From sequence record EU863409: a DNA stretch of 64,000 bases; one strand, given 5' to 3'. The notes under the pieces were generated by a model. The model saw only the letters and a list, made by a program, of their open reading frames with translations. It made no database searches and was not told the origin of the DNA. The position numbers and the translations under genes are program-made. This document shows positions 16,453 to 61,650 of the stretch, one piece after another; the stretch's first letter is position 1, and every line of letters starts with the position of its first letter. The stretch is from Escherichia phage JS10.

Positions 16453-18576
16453 CTACATTTTGAATTTATTTGGTAAAGAAGAGATGTCCAAAGATGCAGC
16501 AAGGATTTCCATAGCCTCATTACTTTCTGAAACAGATTCTGAAACTAGGAATTCTTTAAACCCATTCATCAATTTAACTTCACCGGTTTCCATCAGATGG
16601 TCGCCATCGTAAACGGACTCACTGAGTTCTGAAGGAGATGTCACTGTAGCTTCCATAAGGTATTTGTGAGATACTCTATCATTCATAGCAAAAGCCGCTA
16701 CTTTATCAACCTTCAACAATAATCCGCGCGGAAGGATAATTTCTGCTTCTTCAGAATATTCCGTAAGGTCACCAGGAGCGATAACTTTAACTGCTTCAGC
16801 ACCTCGAATAACCATACCGATTTCAGCAATCCTGTCTGCAGGGCCTTCAGGTGCAATTGGATTACCGAACTCATCTTCTTCCCATTCTACCTCTTCATCA
16901 TCAACTTCACCTACGTCAGATGAACTACCACTAGCCAATTTAAACAACTCATCGGCGGAGGATAAAGAACCTTCATCACCAACAAAAACTGCTTGGTTGT
17001 CGAGGGCCATATAATTTTTACCAAATTCGCCAAAGATGTTAGGCTTTAATGAAGCGGACACAAAGTTCTTAAAGTAAAATGTTTTGTTATCAATATTATG
17101 GCGTAGAATTTTGTATGGTAAATCCTGGCCACGATACAAAATAGTACCCTTAGGAAGTTTAATACCCTTAGTAAATGCTGAGTCTAAATCCTTAATCAAT
17201 TTAATAGCTGTTGTATTGTTTTCGGATTCAGGTTTACCTAAAAGGAATAAGTTCATAGGAGCATATTCAGCTGCACAATATTCGATAATGGCATTACTTT
17301 CGTCTTTTGTCAAGCCCTTAGGTTTAATGAGCTCGCCTGAATAAGCATACGCATCGCCAATAGAATCGTTAATTAGTTTATAAACGGCTTCCATAGCGAA
17401 AGCAATTCGGGATGCTTTCTCTGAAGGAGACCCCTGAAAACGGGCACTCAGGTTATTAACAATTCTCTTAATAATATCCAGACTATTGGTAGTATTGATT
17501 TGAGAAAGGCCGCTTAAAAGTCTATCGACTTCCGTATTAAAAAACGCCATATTATTAGAGTAAATTTCAAACCCTTGTTTATCTCTATTAGCATAATTTA
17601 GTTTAAATTTACTATCAGTCATTAAAGCGTGCGTGAGAGCAATGGTGTATCTAAAGTTGGCAAGGTCCTCACTCTTAGATTTAAACTGAGAGGCCTGTCG
17701 CATTTTAGTAATAGCACCTTTTTTAAAGTTCTGGCTAATCTGCTCAATACCTTCGTTCTCAGGGCCTTCGGCCGAGTGAACAGGTACAGAAACTTCAAAC
17801 TCGTTATAAACCTGCAATTCTTTAGGTGATAAAGTTTCAGGTTCGGCAGTAGAATACTGCGCTGCTGCAGCCATACGACGGGAAATTTTAGTACGAGAGA
17901 TAACGGCCTTATCGGTACGTTTCTCTTCAACCTGTGCAATAGATGCCGCTACGGCTTCGACCTTACTTACGGCCTGTCCGGTTTTCTTAGAAACATAAAC
18001 TTCACCGACTTTAGACTCAACCTTGGTATAAAGGTCCGCATCAATTTCAGGCATACCCTTGATATCTTCAATATTAGTGCCACGACGTGCTAAAAGAACG
18101 TATGTATGTTTACCACTAAACTGGAACATATCATCAACAACTTTAAACTTACCACCAGTACGAGCCATAGCCAAACGAGCTAATACACGCTGAACAGTAG
18201 GACCCTTACCTTTCATTTTCTTGGTAGGGAAACGGAACAAAACTGCATCCATTTTAAGTTTACTTACTTGTTCGTATATCGTATCGAAAATAGTATTCAA
18301 TGCACCAAGAGGGTCAGAACCAAGGCCACCTTTGAGTTCAGCTGGAGCACCCTTGCTCGACAAACTCATTAAAATAACATGAACGTATTTGTCGCCAGGC
18401 TTAACCATTTTAATAGCGTCTCCTTGAGACGCATAAGATACCATACGAGCAACAAGATTATCATTACCCGGTGCTTTAATAGAGAAAATCTGTGGGATAC
18501 CGGAGCCCGGCTTAAGATTTGTTACTGGATAGTTTTTAGCGGAATCACTATCAAAAACTTCGTTTAAATTTTCCAT
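16453..18576 (-). CDS. alt: Alt-type ADP-ribosyltransferase (packaged head protein), paralog 1
   Basis: 707 aa; C-terminal domain has the R (YRGQ), S-x-S (FVSASL) and E-x-E (EAEIILPRG) ADP-ribosyltransferase motifs; position between 54 and 30 as T4 alt. Confidence 0.85.
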   Translation of the reverse strand: MENLNEVFDSDSAKNYPVTNLKPGSGIPQIFSIKAPGNDNLVARMVSYASQGDAIKMVKPGDKYVHVILMSLSSKGAPAELKGGLGSDPLGALNTIFDTIYEQVSKLKMDAVLFRFPTKKMKGKGPTVQRVLARLAMARTGGKFKVVDDMFQFSGKHTYVLLARRGTNIEDIKGMPEIDADLYTKVESKVGEVYVSKKTGQAVSKVEAVAASIAQVEEKRTDKAVISRTKISRRMAAAAQYSTAEPETLSPKELQVYNEFEVSVPVHSAEGPENEGIEQISQNFKKGAITKMRQASQFKSKSEDLANFRYTIALTHALMTDSKFKLNYANRDKQGFEIYSNNMAFFNTEVDRLLSGLSQINTTNSLDIIKRIVNNLSARFQGSPSEKASRIAFAMEAVYKLINDSIGDAYAYSGELIKPKGLTKDESNAIIEYCAAEYAPMNLFLLGKPESENNTTAIKLIKDLDSAFTKGIKLPKGTILYRGQDLPYKILRHNIDNKTFYFKNFVSASLKPNIFGEFGKNYMALDNQAVFVGDEGSLSSADELFKLASGSSSDVGEVDDEEVEWEEDEFGNPIAPEGPADRIAEIGMVIRGAEAVKVIAPGDLTEYSEEAEIILPRGLLLKVDKVAAFAMNDRVSHKYLMEATVTSPSELSESVYDGDHLMETGEVKLMNGFKEFLVSESVSESNEAMEILAASLDISSLPNKFKM

Positions 18577-18579
18577 TAT

Positions 18580-20664
18580 TTACCCTTGGATGAATTTTTC
18601 TGGTATGTCATAGAGGTCTATGCATGAAGCCAAAAGAGGCAGTACGTCAAACCGTGTAGATTTAACAAATGAATCAAAAGATACAGGGCTTTCGGAAGTA
18701 TCGAAGTCATCTTGGTATACGACCAACTCACCGGTTTCCATTAGTACGTCACCATCATACACTACAGATTCTTGAAGCTCATCCGTCGTCATAACTTCGG
18801 CTTGAACGAGTTTTGTATTACTAGATGTCGTTCCGTCATTATTAGAGGCATCAGTTATTTTATTAACTTTGACCATCAATCCGCGTGGTAGAATAACTTC
18901 AGCTTCTGTTGCTATTCCAAGACTTCCTGGATATACCGCATTAACTTTATGGGCTCCATCAATTGCCCATCCTATTTGAACTTTAACGTAATCAGGGTTT
19001 TCTTTATACGCTCTTATTTCATTAGGATTAATGGTTATTCCTTCTTCATTTTTATCGACTGTCAATTCGTTGCGAACTTCCGGTTCTAAAAGACCAACCC
19101 CGGCATGTGTAACACCAAAACGTCCAAAAATGATAGGAGTCAGTGAAGTAGATACAAAATTTCTAAAATAAAATACCTTATTTTTAACTAGTGCTTCGTA
19201 TATAGGAGCGGTCATACTCTGTGCACGATAAACTGTAATGCCTTCTGGTATACGGTCACCATTTTCAAAAGCTGAATCAAGATTATTAACAGCAGATTCA
19301 ATAGACCTTTCATTCATTACATCATAGTTCTGAGGATTATAACGTCCTAAAAGAAGATTATTGATGTCGGTATAACCTGAGCCGCAGTATTCTCTGATGC
19401 CGCGCTTTTGTGATGGGGTGTATTTAGAACCATCACGAGCGATAGTAATATCGACCATAATACCACCACCTACACCGGCAAAACTATAAATGCGTTTTTT
19501 AATGAACTTGGTCTTGGCCGCTTTCCACTTGGACTCGGTTAATTCATTCCAGACGTCGTCAGGTTGACCTTTACGAGTTTTGTTATGCATAGCCAGCCAT
19601 TCGCCTTTATATTCTTCAAAAACCGTATTAATAACAGAGGCATATTTTTCTAGAGCTTTAACAGATGTCAAAGGTTCGTTTTTGATGGCTGTAAGAATTT
19701 TATCTTTAATTTTCTCTTGGATTTCACCTATACCGTGAAGAGGAAACATTTTATATTCGTAATGCAATTCTTCAGCAGTGCCTTCAGCTACTATATTAGC
19801 AACTTTATTTTTAGCCGCAGGAGAATTGTTATTAGTGACCATTTCCTGTGCCTCAGGGATTAATGGAGCTGTTGCAGGTTTATTAAAATCTGCTGCAGTA
19901 GCTTCATATTTCTTAAACAGTTCACTTTCATTACGATAAGATTCTAAAGACTGACTTGCTGCAATAGCGCGACGAGAAATCTTAGTCTTGGTTATAACCA
20001 TTTTATCAGTGCGACGTTCTTCAACTTTAGCAATACTGCCGGCAATAGCAGTTTCTTTAGTAACCTGCACACCTTCTTTTTTAGAAATATAAACTTCACC
20101 AACATCAGAATCTACCTTAGTATACAATTCGGCATTAATTCCTGGCATACCTTTGATATCTTCAATATCAGCTTGTTTACGAACTACTAGGATATAAGTA
20201 TGTTTACCGGTAAATTGGTACATAGCCGGAACTACTTTGAAGCGTCCACCAGTTTTTTGAGTTACCAGACGTTGGATAATCCGTTGGACAATAGGCCCTT
20301 GCCCTTTCATTTTCTTGGTTGGAAAACGGAACATCACAGCATCCATACGAAGCTTTTTAACTTGTTCGAATACTACGTCGAAAATGGTATTAATAGCATC
20401 AATAGGAGTAGGGCCTAAGCCGCCTTTAAGTTCGGCTGGAGAACCTTTAGCCGAAAGGCTCATAAGGATAACGTGGGCGTATTTATCACCTAATTTAACC
20501 TGTTTAATAGCATCGCCTTCAGAGGCATAAGATACCATACGAGCAACTAATTGGGATTCGACATCACCAATCTTCCAAATCTGGGGTACTTTAAGTTTCG
20601 GGTTTAAGTTTACAGTAGGCAGCGTGCCTTCAGACTCAAACACTTCATTTAATTGTTCGGTCAT
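18580..20664 (-). CDS. Alt-type ADP-ribosyltransferase, paralog 2
   Basis: 694 aa; N-terminal ~230 aa close to paralog 1; C-terminal YRAQ / FVSTSL / EAEVILPRG motifs intact. Confidence 0.85.
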   Translation of the reverse strand: MTEQLNEVFESEGTLPTVNLNPKLKVPQIWKIGDVESQLVARMVSYASEGDAIKQVKLGDKYAHVILMSLSAKGSPAELKGGLGPTPIDAINTIFDVVFEQVKKLRMDAVMFRFPTKKMKGQGPIVQRIIQRLVTQKTGGRFKVVPAMYQFTGKHTYILVVRKQADIEDIKGMPGINAELYTKVDSDVGEVYISKKEGVQVTKETAIAGSIAKVEERRTDKMVITKTKISRRAIAASQSLESYRNESELFKKYEATAADFNKPATAPLIPEAQEMVTNNNSPAAKNKVANIVAEGTAEELHYEYKMFPLHGIGEIQEKIKDKILTAIKNEPLTSVKALEKYASVINTVFEEYKGEWLAMHNKTRKGQPDDVWNELTESKWKAAKTKFIKKRIYSFAGVGGGIMVDITIARDGSKYTPSQKRGIREYCGSGYTDINNLLLGRYNPQNYDVMNERSIESAVNNLDSAFENGDRIPEGITVYRAQSMTAPIYEALVKNKVFYFRNFVSTSLTPIIFGRFGVTHAGVGLLEPEVRNELTVDKNEEGITINPNEIRAYKENPDYVKVQIGWAIDGAHKVNAVYPGSLGIATEAEVILPRGLMVKVNKITDASNNDGTTSSNTKLVQAEVMTTDELQESVVYDGDVLMETGELVVYQDDFDTSESPVSFDSFVKSTRFDVLPLLASCIDLYDIPEKFIQG

Positions 20665-24456: not shown

Positions 24457-24469
24457 AATATTTTTTCCT

Positions 24470-24518
24470 CATCAGTTGATAGGTCTATAGTATCATGCCT
24501 ACTGGAGATGTATACCCT
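24470..24518 (-). promoter_or_regulatory. Early promoter cassette (GTATAC-N17-TACTAT plus conserved leader)
   Basis: Conserved motif ttgataggtctatagtatcatg...gtatac read on the - strand; RBS GAGGAAAA follows. Confidence 0.5.
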
Positions 24519-24540
24519 TTTTTAAAGATTTAGAAACAAA

Positions 24541-39207: not shown

Positions 39208-39447
39208 TCACGCTTTCTTAGCGATTTTCCAGTCAGCTTTAAATTGGTCAACATCAGAATGGTGAATCCAGAAACCAGATGAGCTACCATCTTCATAAAG
39301 AGGACAACCATCACACTCATCTTTCCAGCCCATTTCACACAAAGCTTGTTCGGCTTTTTCCAGAGCTTCCGGATTGTTACCTTGGATTGTAAAGTACCAT
39401 TTGCCTTTAACTTCAGAATCTTTAATTGATTCGCGTTGTAATTTCAT
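39208..39447 (-). CDS. hypothetical protein
   Basis: 79 aa ORF behind an early promoter cassette. Confidence 0.5.
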   Translation of the reverse strand: MKLQRESIKDSEVKGKWYFTIQGNNPEALEKAEQALCEMGWKDECDGCPLYEDGSSSGFWIHHSDVDQFKADWKIAKKA

Positions 39448-39461
39448 TTTATTCTCCTCAA

Positions 39462-39504
39462 GTTGATAAGGCTATAGTATCACTACCATAGCCTTAGGTA
39501 AACA
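39462..39504 (-). promoter_or_regulatory. Early promoter cassette
   Basis: ttgataaggctatagtatcac...gtaaac variant. Confidence 0.45.
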
Positions 39505-39505
39505 C

Positions 39506-39751
39506 TTATTTTTGAATTAAGCCCATATAAAATTCAGCGTCTTCAGCATGCATACCATCGCAATATTCATCAGCCATAAAGCGGGTAAGGTCTTCAAGAG
39601 GACCTTGGACTTCAATTTGCATACTACAGAATTGTGTGTCTTTGATATAAGTCATAGTCAAAGAAGGATAACGATTACGGATAACTTCGTAGGTGTATTC
39701 AAAATCAACGATATCAATATTAACCTTAGCCATTTTATTTTCCTCACTCAT
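39506..39751 (-). CDS. hypothetical protein
   Basis: 81 aa ORF behind an early promoter cassette. Confidence 0.5.
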
Positions 39752-39754
39752 TAG

Positions 39755-39795
39755 TTGATAGGTCTATAGTATCATGCCTATAGACCATGTAAACA
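39755..39795 (-). promoter_or_regulatory. Early promoter cassette with stem-loop (GTTTAC-N17-TACTAT)
   Basis: ttgataGGTCTATAGtatcatgcCTATAGACCatgtaaac; inverted repeat spans the -10 region. Confidence 0.55.
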
Positions 39796-39796
39796 T

Positions 39797-40057
39797 TTAT
39801 TTTTGAATTTTATCAAGCCATTTACCAAGTTTAATCATTTCTTTGGTAGCTTTTTCCATACTTCTGAATTTAACCAGTAAGGGTTGAGCATCAACACCCA
39901 TAACTAAGGTGGTTACAAGACTATGTTCGCCTACAAGCCATAACGAATACGTTTGGATATCGAGGCCGTAATTTCGGTCTTTATGAACTCGTACACCCAT
40001 CACTTCAAATTTCTCACTGGCTTTTTCTACTGCATCCAGGAAATCATCTTTAGTCAT
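39797..40057 (-). CDS. hypothetical protein
   Basis: Start taken at internal Met (MTKDDFLD...) abutting the upstream stop; track ORF is 39797-40120. Confidence 0.4.
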   Translation of the reverse strand: MTKDDFLDAVEKASEKFEVMGVRVHKDRNYGLDIQTYSLWLVGEHSLVTTLVMGVDAQPLLVKFRSMEKATKEMIKLGKWLDKIQK

Positions 40058-57159: not shown

Positions 57160-57792
57160 TTAAATTGCGTTGGTTACGGTTTTGATAACTTCAGATGATA
57201 CGTTTTGGAAGTCGATATAAGTATTCTTACCACCAGTCTTAATCTTAACATCAAGATTCAAAGAAGTAAACACTTGTTTTTCTTTATCAGTCATATTATA
57301 ACCGAAGATGCGCATCATTCCGTCACGACGGACTTCGATTTGACGAATACCGTTAGTACGTTTAGCGAATCGAACTTCAAGATTGCTACGGTTTTCAGCG
57401 ATTTCACGAATCTCGATACGGTCTTCTAACAAAGATTTAACTTCATCAGCCAATACTACCATTTCAGGAGTAACACCACGTGAACTACGTGTTTTACGTT
57501 TTTCCAACATCTCTGGAGCATTTTCAGAAGCGAACAGGTCAGCAGCTTTTTGAACTAGGTCCATTGCTTCACCTGTAGCCACCAGTCCATCACCAGATTT
57601 TTCGATGAATCCTTTCTTAATCAATACACCAATGTTAGAGTTAACTACCGCTGCACTAAATTGTTCACTCAGGGCTTCACGGACTTCGCCTGAAGTGATG
57701 AAGTTATGCTTGATGATATGTACTAAGATTGAAGCGGTTTTTTCATTCAGGGCGTCTTCAGAAGCTTTGATGATATAAGTAATTTTAGACAT
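57160..57792 (-). CDS. motA: MotA middle-transcription activator
   Basis: 210 aa; MSKITYIIKASEDALNEKTASILV...SNIGVLIKKGFIEKSGDGL matches T4 MotA. Confidence 0.85.
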   Translation of the reverse strand: MSKITYIIKASEDALNEKTASILVHIIKHNFITSGEVREALSEQFSAAVVNSNIGVLIKKGFIEKSGDGLVATGEAMDLVQKAADLFASENAPEMLEKRKTRSSRGVTPEMVVLADEVKSLLEDRIEIREIAENRSNLEVRFAKRTNGIRQIEVRRDGMMRIFGYNMTDKEKQVFTSLNLDVKIKTGGKNTYIDFQNVSSEVIKTVTNAI

Positions 57793-57814
57793 TTTAATCT
57801 CCGTTTCAGTTCAT

Positions 57815-57860
57815 TTATTTGATAGGTCTATAGTATCATGTTTAAAGCAGAAGTAAACTT
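57815..57860 (-). promoter_or_regulatory. Early promoter cassette for motA
   Basis: tttgataggtctatagtatcatgtttaaagcagaagtaaac. Confidence 0.55.
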
Positions 57861-57898
57861 TATTTTGAGCTCTTTTTCAAGAGCTCTAATAAAAGTAC

Positions 57899-58126
57899 TT
57901 ACTTAATGTTCAGATTACGAACTTCGATTTCGTCTTCAGGGGCAAAATCAAACTGTTTGAATTCTGTGTCACCTTTAAATTTAAAAATCATTGTGAAGAA
58001 AGTCAGAACACCGGGTTTTTCTTCACGAACTCCACAGATATCATATTCAATACCATCTACAACCAGTTTGTTAGCAGTCAGAGCATTTTTAGCTTTAACG
58101 ATTTCGTTTTCGATTTTAAATTTCAT
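57899..58126 (-). CDS. hypothetical protein
   Basis: 75 aa ORF flanked on both sides by near-identical promoter cassettes. Confidence 0.5.
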   Translation of the reverse strand: MKFKIENEIVKAKNALTANKLVVDGIEYDICGVREEKPGVLTFFTMIFKFKGDTEFKQFDFAPEDEIEVRNLNIK

Positions 58127-58149
58127 TTTTGTATCTCCGGGTTGTTTGT

Positions 58150-58197
58150 TTCAGTTCATTTATTTGATAGGTCTATAGTATCATGTTTAAAGCAGAT
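58150..58197 (-). promoter_or_regulatory. Early promoter cassette (near-identical copy of the one at 57815-57860)
   Basis: tttgataggtctatagtatcatgtttaaagcagatgtaaac. Confidence 0.55.
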
Positions 58198-58221
58198 GTA
58201 AACACTTTTTTGCACTAAACC

Positions 58222-58252
58222 CAAAAAGGAACCCGAAGGTTCCTTACTTTTT
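58222..58252 (-). terminator. Rho-independent terminator (- strand)
   Basis: ggaacc-cgaa-ggttcc hairpin followed by a T-run on the - strand. Confidence 0.55.
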
Positions 58253-58348
58253 AAAGTGGGCCGCTATTAAACCTATAGCTAAGCCTGTTGCCAGGCCTAG
58301 GATAACAGCAAAGATACAGAGTAGCAAGAACTCGACTCCAAGGCTCAT
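58244..58348 (-). CDS. possible small hydrophobic membrane peptide (about 34 aa)
   Basis: MSLGVEFLLLCIFAVILGLATGLAIGLIAAHFKK; GGAGG RBS; ATG overlaps the gp52 stop; followed by a terminator. Confidence 0.35.
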   Translation of the reverse strand: MSLGVEFLLLCIFAVILGLATGLAIGLIAAHFKK

Positions 58349-59724
58349 AGAGCCTCCAAATCTTTAACATACTCAGTTACAACATCAGTGGTTTTCCAGT
58401 ATTGATGCTCTTCTTTCTTAGCCTTGGCTTCCAAAGCCAGTTTCTTAGCTTCATCGGACGTGATATGGAAAATATTCATTGCTACGAGTTTATCAGCGTA
58501 TTCGCCGTAGACTTTATTACCGGTTAATTCTTCGGTTAAAACCTTACGGGTCTTACCTTGGATAACCACTACACCATCAATAACATCTTTAATGAATGTG
58601 GCTTTAGCCAATGCCAGTTTGAAAGCTTCTTCGGTTTCGATGATTTTACCATCAATACGTTTTTGTACAAAGGTCTTACGGACCTCAACGAAATCACGAA
58701 TCAGTTCAACTACATCTTCGTAAACCTTAAGTTTACCTTTCTCATTAATGACGGTCAGGTTTTGCGAACGACGTTCGATTAACCCGAAGTCCTTCATGAT
58801 TTTTTCATGCTTCTTATTTTCTTCAGTAGGCAATTCATATTCTTTACGAATCTTAACCTTGAAGCCGAAACCATTCTCGTCACAGTCGTCATCATACGTG
58901 ATATACCCTTTGTCTTCTAAAGGGTCCAACACCTTAGCCACATACGTTTCACGGTCGTATTTGTACGGGATTTCTGTGATATGCATTTGGGTTCGAGATG
59001 TGAACTTATACGTGCCTCGTAGTTCATAACTACCTGGTTCAATCTCAACCACATCGCCACGGAATTCCGGATAAGCCACCTTAGGCTTGGTTACGCGTTT
59101 TTCTTGAAGAACCTGCAATACAGCTTTCTTAACAGAATCAAAACTATGAGGAAGAATATTAGTTGCATAACCAGTTGCAATACCGGAAATACCATTAAGA
59201 AGAACAGTAGGAATAATAGGCAGATAAAAAGCTGGTGGCTTATGTTCGACATCCGCATGAACCGGAGCATATTCTGTATCCTTATAAACCTTTGCGAAAT
59301 TAGTTCCAATTCGTGCAAAAATATAACGAGAGGCCGCAGCCTTTTGAACCAGTCGAGAACCGAAGTTGCCCTGACCATCCAACAGTGGGAAGTTGTTGTT
59401 CCATGTGTTAGCCATCAGAGCACCTGCTTCTTGAGCAGAACCTTCACCGTGGTGATATCCAAGGTCGGCTACACCACCTGCAATAGAAGCCAGTTTGTGG
59501 AATTTTTCTTTATTACCACGAGCCATATCAAGACAACGAGCAACTACAAAACGTTGTACAGGTTTAAAGCCATCAATCATATTTGGAATGGCTCGGTTTT
59601 CGACAGTATACATTGCATAAGCCAATGCTTCGTTGTCGATAATACTTTTTAAGTCACGAGGAGTAAAAGTATCGTCGTAAACATCTAAAGCCTGTTTAAA
59701 AAGGGTATCAATTACATCAGCCAT
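58345..59724 (-). CDS. 52: DNA topoisomerase II medium subunit gp52
   Basis: 459 aa; GyrA/ParC-like N-terminus (...AMYTVENRAIPNMIDGFKPVQRFV...). Confidence 0.9.
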   Translation of the reverse strand: MADVIDTLFKQALDVYDDTFTPRDLKSIIDNEALAYAMYTVENRAIPNMIDGFKPVQRFVVARCLDMARGNKEKFHKLASIAGGVADLGYHHGEGSAQEAGALMANTWNNNFPLLDGQGNFGSRLVQKAAASRYIFARIGTNFAKVYKDTEYAPVHADVEHKPPAFYLPIIPTVLLNGISGIATGYATNILPHSFDSVKKAVLQVLQEKRVTKPKVAYPEFRGDVVEIEPGSYELRGTYKFTSRTQMHITEIPYKYDRETYVAKVLDPLEDKGYITYDDDCDENGFGFKVKIRKEYELPTEENKKHEKIMKDFGLIERRSQNLTVINEKGKLKVYEDVVELIRDFVEVRKTFVQKRIDGKIIETEEAFKLALAKATFIKDVIDGVVVIQGKTRKVLTEELTGNKVYGEYADKLVAMNIFHITSDEAKKLALEAKAKKEEHQYWKTTDVVTEYVKDLEAL

Positions 59725-61394: not shown

Positions 61395-61505
61395 TCAGAA
61401 GTTAAAGAATACACGTACATGGTCAATCATAAAAACGATTGGGAAAATGCTCAATACCATTAACAACACAAACATGTTCCAAATTGCTTTAAGTAAGTTT
61501 TTCAT
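61395..61505 (-). CDS. possible small hydrophobic peptide (about 36 aa)
   Basis: MKNLLKAIWNMFVLLMVLSIFPIVFMIDHVRVFFNF, directly behind an early promoter cassette. Confidence 0.3.
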   Translation of the reverse strand: MKNLLKAIWNMFVLLMVLSIFPIVFMIDHVRVFFNF

Positions 61506-61517
61506 AATCATCTCCAT

Positions 61518-61562
61518 TAGTTGATAGGTCTATAATATCATGTCTAATGGAGATGTATACTG
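61518..61562 (-). promoter_or_regulatory. Early promoter cassette (GTATAC-N17-TATTAT)
   Basis: ttgataggtctataatatcatg...gtatac. Confidence 0.5.
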
Positions 61563-61650
61563 ATTTATGCCAATTTCCACAACAATAAACTAAAACATAC
61601 GCAAATCACTGGGATACAGGCTATCCAAATAAGGCACCACATTTTGCTAC

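Follow-up and report, generated by a model that had tools for sequence, protein, structure and literature searches.

A putative PeSL-type gene cassette between gene 52 and motA in a JS98-like Dhakavirus

A single gene of 75 amino acids, here called gene A, lies between two near-identical early-promoter blocks in the 64,000-nucleotide stretch of Escherichia phage JS10 DNA that we analysed (EU863409; hereafter the window). We consider it very likely that this arrangement is a PeSL-type cassette in the slot between gene 52 and motA, and that the flanking promoter-leader blocks would act as portable homology for general recombination. A PeSL is a repeated composite element in which an early promoter is combined with an AT-rich tract, a stem-loop and the Shine-Dalgarno sequence (SD) and ATG of the next gene, and it stands before ORFans in hyperplastic regions (Arbiol 2010, PMC2839356). 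In the model put forward there, an ORF is lost or gained via a mini-circle when the PeSLs on either side of it recombine (PMC2839356). PeSL promoter activity, terminator activity and circles were demonstrated experimentally in RB49 and phi1, the inverse PCR and ultrafiltration that revealed the mini-circles being confined to RB49 (PMC2839356). The concept was later extended to nt-1/KVP40 and to PST/T4, the latter with the consensus TTTACW...TAYWAT and a stem-loop directly ahead of the promoter (Comeau 2014, PMC4122927).

At the level of sequence, every PeSL feature is present at the motA-52 slot. Both copies of the block have -35 and -10 boxes of the PST/T4 consensus with a stem-loop just upstream of the promoter, an AT-rich tract before the -35 box and, at the 3′ end, the SD and start codon belonging to the next gene. 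As with PeSLs, the composite is intergenic, the region is variable, and the single ORFs enclosed have no known function, here gene A in a polymorphic slot. From one close relative to the next, the ORF is deleted, inserted or replaced, and a single chimeric element remains (EcoM_005, fDHCT2). The idea of excision and exchange is already published as the PeSL model (PMC2839356, PMC4122927); what is new here is the locus and its set of cassettes. The word motA has 0 occurrences in those two articles, while JS98 is mentioned once, for the gene 43 region.

Over the region, the window shares 98.8% identity with Escherichia phage MN04 and about 97% with JS98, two members of the genus Dhakavirus (Tevenvirinae), and the window phage is a JS98-like Dhakavirus. 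All genes of the region are on the minus strand. The ORFs between arn.4 and gene 52 are the syntenic T4 genes, namely arn.4, motA, a motA.1-like ORF and gene 52, and gene A is the only cargo among them. The slot is bounded on one side by the pair of gene 52 and a 34-aa ORF, and on the other by motA (Table 1). The 34-aa ORF, which belongs to a family of unknown function, is found in every Dhakavirus locus that was read.

Table 1. Features of the gene 52-motA interval in the window, in the order of transcription
Feature	Position	Strand	Basis
Gene 52, topoisomerase II medium subunit; conserved upstream border	58345..59724	minus	gp52 / DNA topoisomerase II annotation in MN04, JS98 and T4
Hydrophobic ORF of 34 aa at the position of motA.1 in T4; last gene ahead of the slot	58244..58348	minus	phrog_16377, E 2e-21
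Stem-loop 1, terminator-like, AAGGAACC-UUCG-GGUUCCUU (58226-58245) with T-rich tail (58216-58225)	58216..58245	minus	terminator-like call and centroid hairpin
Promoter-leader copy 1, putative driver of gene A	58148..58212	minus	-35 GTTTAC 58198-58203, TG 58182-58183, -10 TACTAT 58175-58180, leader AGACCTATCAAATAAATGAACTGAAAC
Cassette-specific leader of gene A, AAACAACCC-GGAGATACAAAA	58127..58147	minus	Shine-Dalgarno GGAG 58135-58138
Gene A, 75-aa ORF with ATG start; cassette cargo	57899..58126	minus	ORF; phrog_10955, E 1e-48
Stem-loop 2, GAGCUCUU-GAAA-AAGAGCUC, 8 bp, whole GAGCTCTTGAAAAAGAGCTC	57867..57886	minus	-12.8 kcal/mol, z -3.8
Promoter-leader copy 2, putative driver of motA	57803..57867	minus	-35 GTTTAC 57853-57858, -10 TACTAT 57830-57835, shared leader, GGAG 57799-57802, motA ATG
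motA, activator of middle transcription; conserved downstream border	57160..57792	minus	Pfam MotA_activ E 2e-38, MotCF E 1e-13, phrog_1345
Segment common to Tequatrovirus ACG-C40, 387 nt, 97.7%	57784..58170	minus	from just past the copy 1 -10 box to motA codon 3

A repeat search of the window returns the two blocks as a direct repeat of 2 copies of 65 nt, 94% identical, with a start-to-start distance of 345. The first-pass annotation, which had described two near-identical cassettes flanking the 75-aa ORF as direct repeats, is thereby confirmed; the coordinates it gave, 57815-57860 and 58150-58197 at a distance of about 340 bp, are contained in the copies found, but the real repeat is somewhat longer and the spacing is 345. 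Read on the plus strand, the copies are identical for the initial 49 nt and then continue with one mismatch and GTAAAC. These 49 nt form the longest exact direct repeat anywhere in the 64-kb window, against 15-18 nt in 20 first-order Markov resamples.

On the minus strand, each copy runs from an A-rich tract ahead of the -35 box (GCAAAAAAGTG and CAAAATAAAG) through GTTTAC(A/T), 16-17 nt and TACTAT, with TG one base before the latter, to the leader AGACCTATCAAATAAATGAACTGAAAC. Past this leader the two copies part, and each has its own SD (GGAG) and ATG, the 3′ ends with the SD being GGAGATACAAAAATG and GGAGATTAAAATG. In both copies, the T4-type early promoter pattern is accompanied by a stem-loop ahead of it, A-rich sequence upstream, and an SD and ATG behind it; as judged from sequence, both are putative promoters. 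A simple sigma-70 scan calls copy 1 with 9/12 and does not call copy 2 (TTTACT), for which a hand count gives 8/12.

The pattern GTTTAC-17 nt-TG-n-TACTAT has 8 matches in the window, all on the minus strand, against 0.25 expected; hence a promoter family exists in the window, and one may ask whether the two blocks are alike only because both are selected as strong early promoters. They would then have no role in recombination, and the indels at the slot would be unrelated illegitimate events. Consistent with this, GTTTAC, TG-n-TAYTAT and CCTATCAA elements are present in all early promoters of the window, and the core of the motA promoter is conserved across genera. However, the identity of the flanking pair extends to spacer and leader positions that are free to vary elsewhere: when 70 nt are compared with the -10 box as anchor, 62 positions agree between the two copies, whereas the remaining pairs among the ten early-promoter-like sites in the window have a mean of 33/70 and a maximum of 51/70. 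Likewise, the repeat search finds other members of the promoter family to be 66-72% identical to the reference copy, versus 94% for the flanking pair. The 65-nt repeat far exceeds both chance and promoter-family similarity. Together with the structure of the empty alleles and of a segment common to another genus, both described below, this makes promoter selection as the whole explanation very improbable.

Stem-loop 1 does not fold exceptionally in comparison with shuffled sequences (z -1.5); it is kept in all Dhakavirus loci read. For stem-loop 2, a role as an intrinsic terminator was considered and found to be unsupported, as no U tract lies behind the hairpin and the terminator scan did not call it. 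The PeSL concept includes transcriptional insulation, and at this point such insulation may be only partial. The joint of hairpin and promoter behind gene A is the one found behind an unrelated gene, gene B, in JS98 and IME08. A counterpart is also present in the Mosigvirus PhAPEC2 (1660-1690; GGGCUUUU/AAGAGCCC), the layout of which is like that of JS98, with a gene B that is 75% identical at the protein level. Relative to the hairpin in the window, that of PhAPEC2 has two changes, a compensatory one from A:T to G:C and one from C:G to T:G. The compensatory change points to selection on the hairpin structure, despite the absent U tract.

The first-pass annotation had named an invariant locus as the finding that would speak against a mobile module, and had predicted natural variants with a single cassette and without the gene. 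Such variants exist in 18 phages, and the locus has at least five occupancy states: among about 37 Dhakavirus phages, the slot is empty with one promoter in 18, holds gene A in 6, gene B in 8 and gene C in 3, and holds both B and C in 1. These allele counts were obtained from match spans, a 180-nt empty-junction query and tblastn with genes B and C, and are mostly based on spans and piece counts rather than full reading. The series is anchored on the gene 52-motA interval read directly in nine relatives. Among the intervals so read, MN04 has gene A, as in the window; EcoM_005 and fDHCT2, read base by base, have no gene and one promoter; JS98, dhabil and C6 have gene B, of 71 aa, between two promoter blocks; 04086 has gene C, of 73 aa and likewise unrelated; and IME08 has three promoter blocks, with B and C arranged in tandem. 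In the 18 empty-slot phages, the empty-junction query matches in one piece and the spans are about 345 bp shorter. The prediction that the gene would be excised or duplicated was borne out in part: excision or exchange is seen in the allele series, but a tandem duplication of gene A is not, the gene having one place per record in 166 of 166 records.

We give practically no credence to the duplicate promoter being an assembly or annotation artefact, such as a collapsed or duplicated repeat. A run of N between the copies in phage CUA3 does show that assemblies can fail at the slot; nevertheless, the two-copy structure with gene A is found in six independent Dhakavirus assemblies, and the copies differ at diagnostic bases and in their flanks. 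Furthermore, rare though it is within Dhakavirus, gene A at 95% or more amino acid identity occurs in 136 phage records, about 130 of which are outside Dhakavirus and mostly from Tequatrovirus, which makes it a widespread cargo.

Two records deserve a comment of their own. In the gene 52-motA interval of CUA3 (PP410321.1), the N run lies exactly between both promoter copies, and single N's stand where promoter and leader types differ. The record looks like a reference-guided consensus that failed to resolve the cassette, perhaps with a mixed population or a different cargo behind it. In IME08 (NC_014260.1, locus 1069-1400), gene C (73 aa), which lies between gene B and motA, lacks an annotation, and the annotated gene B and motA have 5′ extensions relative to other records.

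The empty alleles are of two kinds, each of which fits one occupied allele. EcoM_005, KIT01 and E33 are at least 99% identical to the empty-junction query and fit gene A; fDHCT2 fits gene B of JS98, and fourteen other phages match the query at 91.6-94.4%, as fDHCT2 does. In EcoM_005, KIT01 and E33, the single promoter starts with the upstream tract of copy 1 and GTTTACATCTG, followed directly by GAACTGAAAC-GGAG-motA, the leader of copy 2. Alleles of this type look like the product expected of a crossover between the two copies in the window. The upstream half of copy 1 is Dhakavirus-native, being the same as this single EcoM_005 promoter, and the 40-nt core of copy 2 (-35 to CCTATCAA) recurs unchanged in the motA promoters of JS98 and the Tequatrovirus ACG-C40. 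In fDHCT2, the JS98 copy-1 upstream tract is joined to the JS98 motA leader GGTTATC-GGAG, and this type in turn looks like the product expected of a deletion of gene B. Both kinds are thus chimeras with junctions inside the shared block, which is difficult to reconcile with selection on promoters alone; illegitimate events would not keep yielding single promoters that are in register.

The direction of change at these alleles is a separate matter. The spacer between SD and ATG in EcoM_005 is off the predicted deletion product (GGAGATACAAAATG versus GGAGATTAAAATG), so EcoM_005 is not a direct descendant of the window lineage. The empty alleles could equally be ancestral recipients, from before the insertion, and not deletion products. 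In addition, derived bases are common to the promoter copies of one genome, as with CGTGTTATTAT in P1 and P2 of IME08, and GCTTCAAAC and GATATTAT in both copies of PhAPEC2. In this small sample, the pattern suggests gene conversion between the promoter copies of a genome.

Gene A also occupies the gene 52-motA slot in ACG-C40. From 58170 to 57784, the window is 97.7% identical to this phage (379/388 aligned columns), and gene A alone is 99.1% identical (226/228 nt), while in the flanks the gene 52 part has 73.0% identity and motA beyond codon 3 has 58.9%. The left boundary of the shared segment is just past the copy 1 -10 box and the right boundary is at the motA start codon; within it, the leader of gene A is identical except for the length of one A run. 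That the segment starts and ends within the blocks again argues against promoter selection as the sole cause of their similarity. The earlier suggestion that the gene is recently acquired or mobile gains support from this near-identity across genera within flanks of 59-73%, and from homologues in other slots (see below). We take the segment as sequence evidence of a recent exchange between Dhakavirus and Tequatrovirus, two genera that infect the same hosts.

In T4, the slot is empty and reads motA.1, terminator, promoter, motA. The T4 motA promoter is the same as the upstream promoter of ACG-C40 up to CTATCAA, from where ACG-C40 continues with the leader of gene A. Behind gene A, the hairpin and motA promoter of ACG-C40 are of the Dhakavirus/Mosigvirus type and not of the T4 type. 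Since this stem-loop and motA promoter are native to Dhakavirus/Mosigvirus and absent from T4, phages of the ACG-C40 type probably obtained gene A together with the stem-loop and motA promoter from a Dhakavirus-like donor. Tequatrovirus as the donor, which its many copies of gene A might suggest, was dropped because the T4 slot is empty, the T4 motA promoter is different and the joint is native to Dhakavirus/Mosigvirus. Integration of a circle by a single crossover was also rejected for ACG-C40, given that the motA leader there is of the Dhakavirus type as well; a double crossover between linear genomes fits better.

Another mechanism that could be invoked is a dedicated site-specific system, integron-like or of a homing type, that moves cassettes by recognising the core TATAGACCTATCAA or the stem-loop, a possibility raised by Arbiol et al. 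(PMC2839356). Cassette-specific sequence repeatedly starts right past CTATCAA, both between T4 and ACG-C40 and between copies 1 and 2 of JS98, and the stem-loop structure is conserved with a compensatory change. Yet CTATCAA is the end of the conserved promoter block, so that a homologous crossover anywhere in the block yields an identical apparent junction. Moreover, the right-hand junction in ACG-C40 is elsewhere, at the SD and start codon, and none of the genes read from arn.4 to gene 52 encodes a recombinase or endonuclease. Nor does this stretch show an integrase or attC/attI. We therefore regard a site-specific system as unlikely. A bolder version, in which the promoter-leader core (…TACTATAGACCTATCAA) plus the stem-loop would be a recognised recombination site serving integron-like cassette exchange across T4-type genera, is given a similarly low probability; if it were true, the motA slot would be a natural test bed for it, with five states, two matched empty alleles and a segment of about 98% identity between Dhakavirus and Tequatrovirus.

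Distant homologues of gene A (58-71% amino acid identity) were read in four further genera. In Moonvirus (Merlin) the homologue occupies the same gene 52-motA slot, in Jiaodavirus (K65PH164) it lies downstream of tRNA genes, and in Gelderlandvirus (CF-SP2) and Karamvirus (RZH) it lies between a nucleotidyltransferase (phrog_388) and phrog_1250. An early promoter is directly upstream of the homologue in all four genera, and directly downstream in all but K65PH164, where the downstream promoter-like element has the variant -35 TATACA, which is outside the promoter pattern used. In Mosigvirus, homologues of gene C are located about 88 kb away from gene B.

Returning to general recombination at the promoter blocks, we propose the following course of events. 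The cassette would be a self-contained early transcription unit made up of an early promoter, a leader, a GGAG SD, the 75-aa ORF and a stem-loop. Because it lies directly upstream of motA's own early promoter, two near-identical blocks result as direct repeats 345 bp apart. The promoter family, which is present genome-wide and in related genera, would serve the general recombination of the phage as portable homology. A crossover between the copies would remove gene A and leave one chimeric promoter and, by analogy with RB49, would also free a small circle; cassettes could be inserted or swapped when the genome recombines with such a circle or with a co-infecting phage. Early after infection, host RNA polymerase would start at both promoters, with copy 1 giving rise to the gene A transcript. 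As stem-loop 2 has no U tract, transcription of gene A probably runs partly into motA, in addition to that from the copy 2 promoter. Each product of these exchanges retains an intact promoter and leader before motA, so that loss, gain and swap of cargo would be tolerated and cheap for the phage. Those parts of this scheme that concern the activity of promoters and terminators, the route of recombination, a circle as intermediate and which genus was the donor are inferred. An exact homology of 49 nt is short for recombination, although, in the passage of PMC2839356 that cites Singer 1982, patches of less than 50 bp are stated to be all that T4 recombination needs.

The case differs in several respects from those in the PeSL papers. 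The genus (Dhakavirus) and the locus are others, and the downstream gene is the essential regulator motA, not an ORFan; stem-loop 2 is neither followed by a U tract nor rich in G/C tracts. Here a multi-allele series in about 37 phages and a cross-genus segment are known from sequence, whereas mini-circles were shown there. Comparable arrangements exist in other systems. At the IP loci of T-even phages (Repoila et al. 1994), as portrayed in PMC2839356, T4-type early promoters and weak AT-rich stem-loops likewise accompany small, interchangeable and non-essential genes at a fixed slot, although locus and cargo are different. Morons (Hendrix et al. 2000) similarly consist of one accessory gene with its own promoter, and partly a terminator, between two conserved genes; in contrast to morons, recombination here would act on the flanking promoter blocks, and the cassette points in the same direction as its neighbours. 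As in integrons, small promoter-associated cassettes gather and swap at a defined site, possibly via circles, but each cassette here has its own promoter, and general homologous recombination is the simplest explanation of the exchange.

The motA slot thus offers no new mechanism, yet it would be an unusually clean natural case of PeSL-mediated shuffling. With a clean allele series next to an essential regulator, and with exchange between genera, it would be a convenient site at which to assay rates of excision and exchange in T4-type phages. It could also be a tolerated, self-expressing insertion site for the engineering of therapeutic phages.

As for the cargo itself, gene A has no Pfam match and phrog_10955 is a family of unknown function. 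The AlphaFold model of its product, a small beta-barrel, is confident (pLDDT 88.5), but fold matches are weak: an eIF5A/EF-P-like beta-barrel in the PDB at E ~0.02, and uncharacterised phage proteins only in BFVD. Only six close relatives, plus one additional 50% cluster, are present in the large protein databases. Hence, no function could be assigned to the product from Pfam, PHROG, the protein databases or the weak PDB and BFVD matches. In a representative library, a protein of 3,984 aa has five stretches that match positions 34-63 of the gene A family profile (E 3.5e-11), which hints that the central beta-hairpin motif of the family may occur as a repeat in this giant protein. With regard to RegB control, the T4 motA RNA is a good RegB substrate, the consensus site being GGAGRAYARAA; the SD of motA in the window (GGAGAUUAAAA) is near that of T4 motA (GGAGAUUAGAA), and that of gene A (GGAGAUACAAA) fits the RegB consensus less well.

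Several other elements of the window were observed along the way, all on the minus strand. At 16453-18576 and 18580-20664 there are tandem paralogues of an Alt-like RNA polymerase ADP-ribosyltransferase (707 and 694 aa, phrog_802), which account for 75-82% identical repeats spaced 2,094 bp. Members of the promoter family with a -35 GTATAC instead of GTTTAC are found at 24460-24524 and 61505-61569; in the latter, an inverted repeat, ATCTCCATTAG ... CTAATGGAGAT, encloses the -10 box. Finally, at 39208-39810, a second small gene (39506-39733, 75 aa, phrog_1764) lies between two early promoters, both of which are preceded by TTCAAAAATAA(A/G)TGTTTAC. These promoters have palindromes over the spacer and -10 box, GGTCTATAG...CTATAGACC and AAGGCTATGG...CTATAGCCTT, that resemble the PeSL subclass whose stem-loop overlaps the -10 box.
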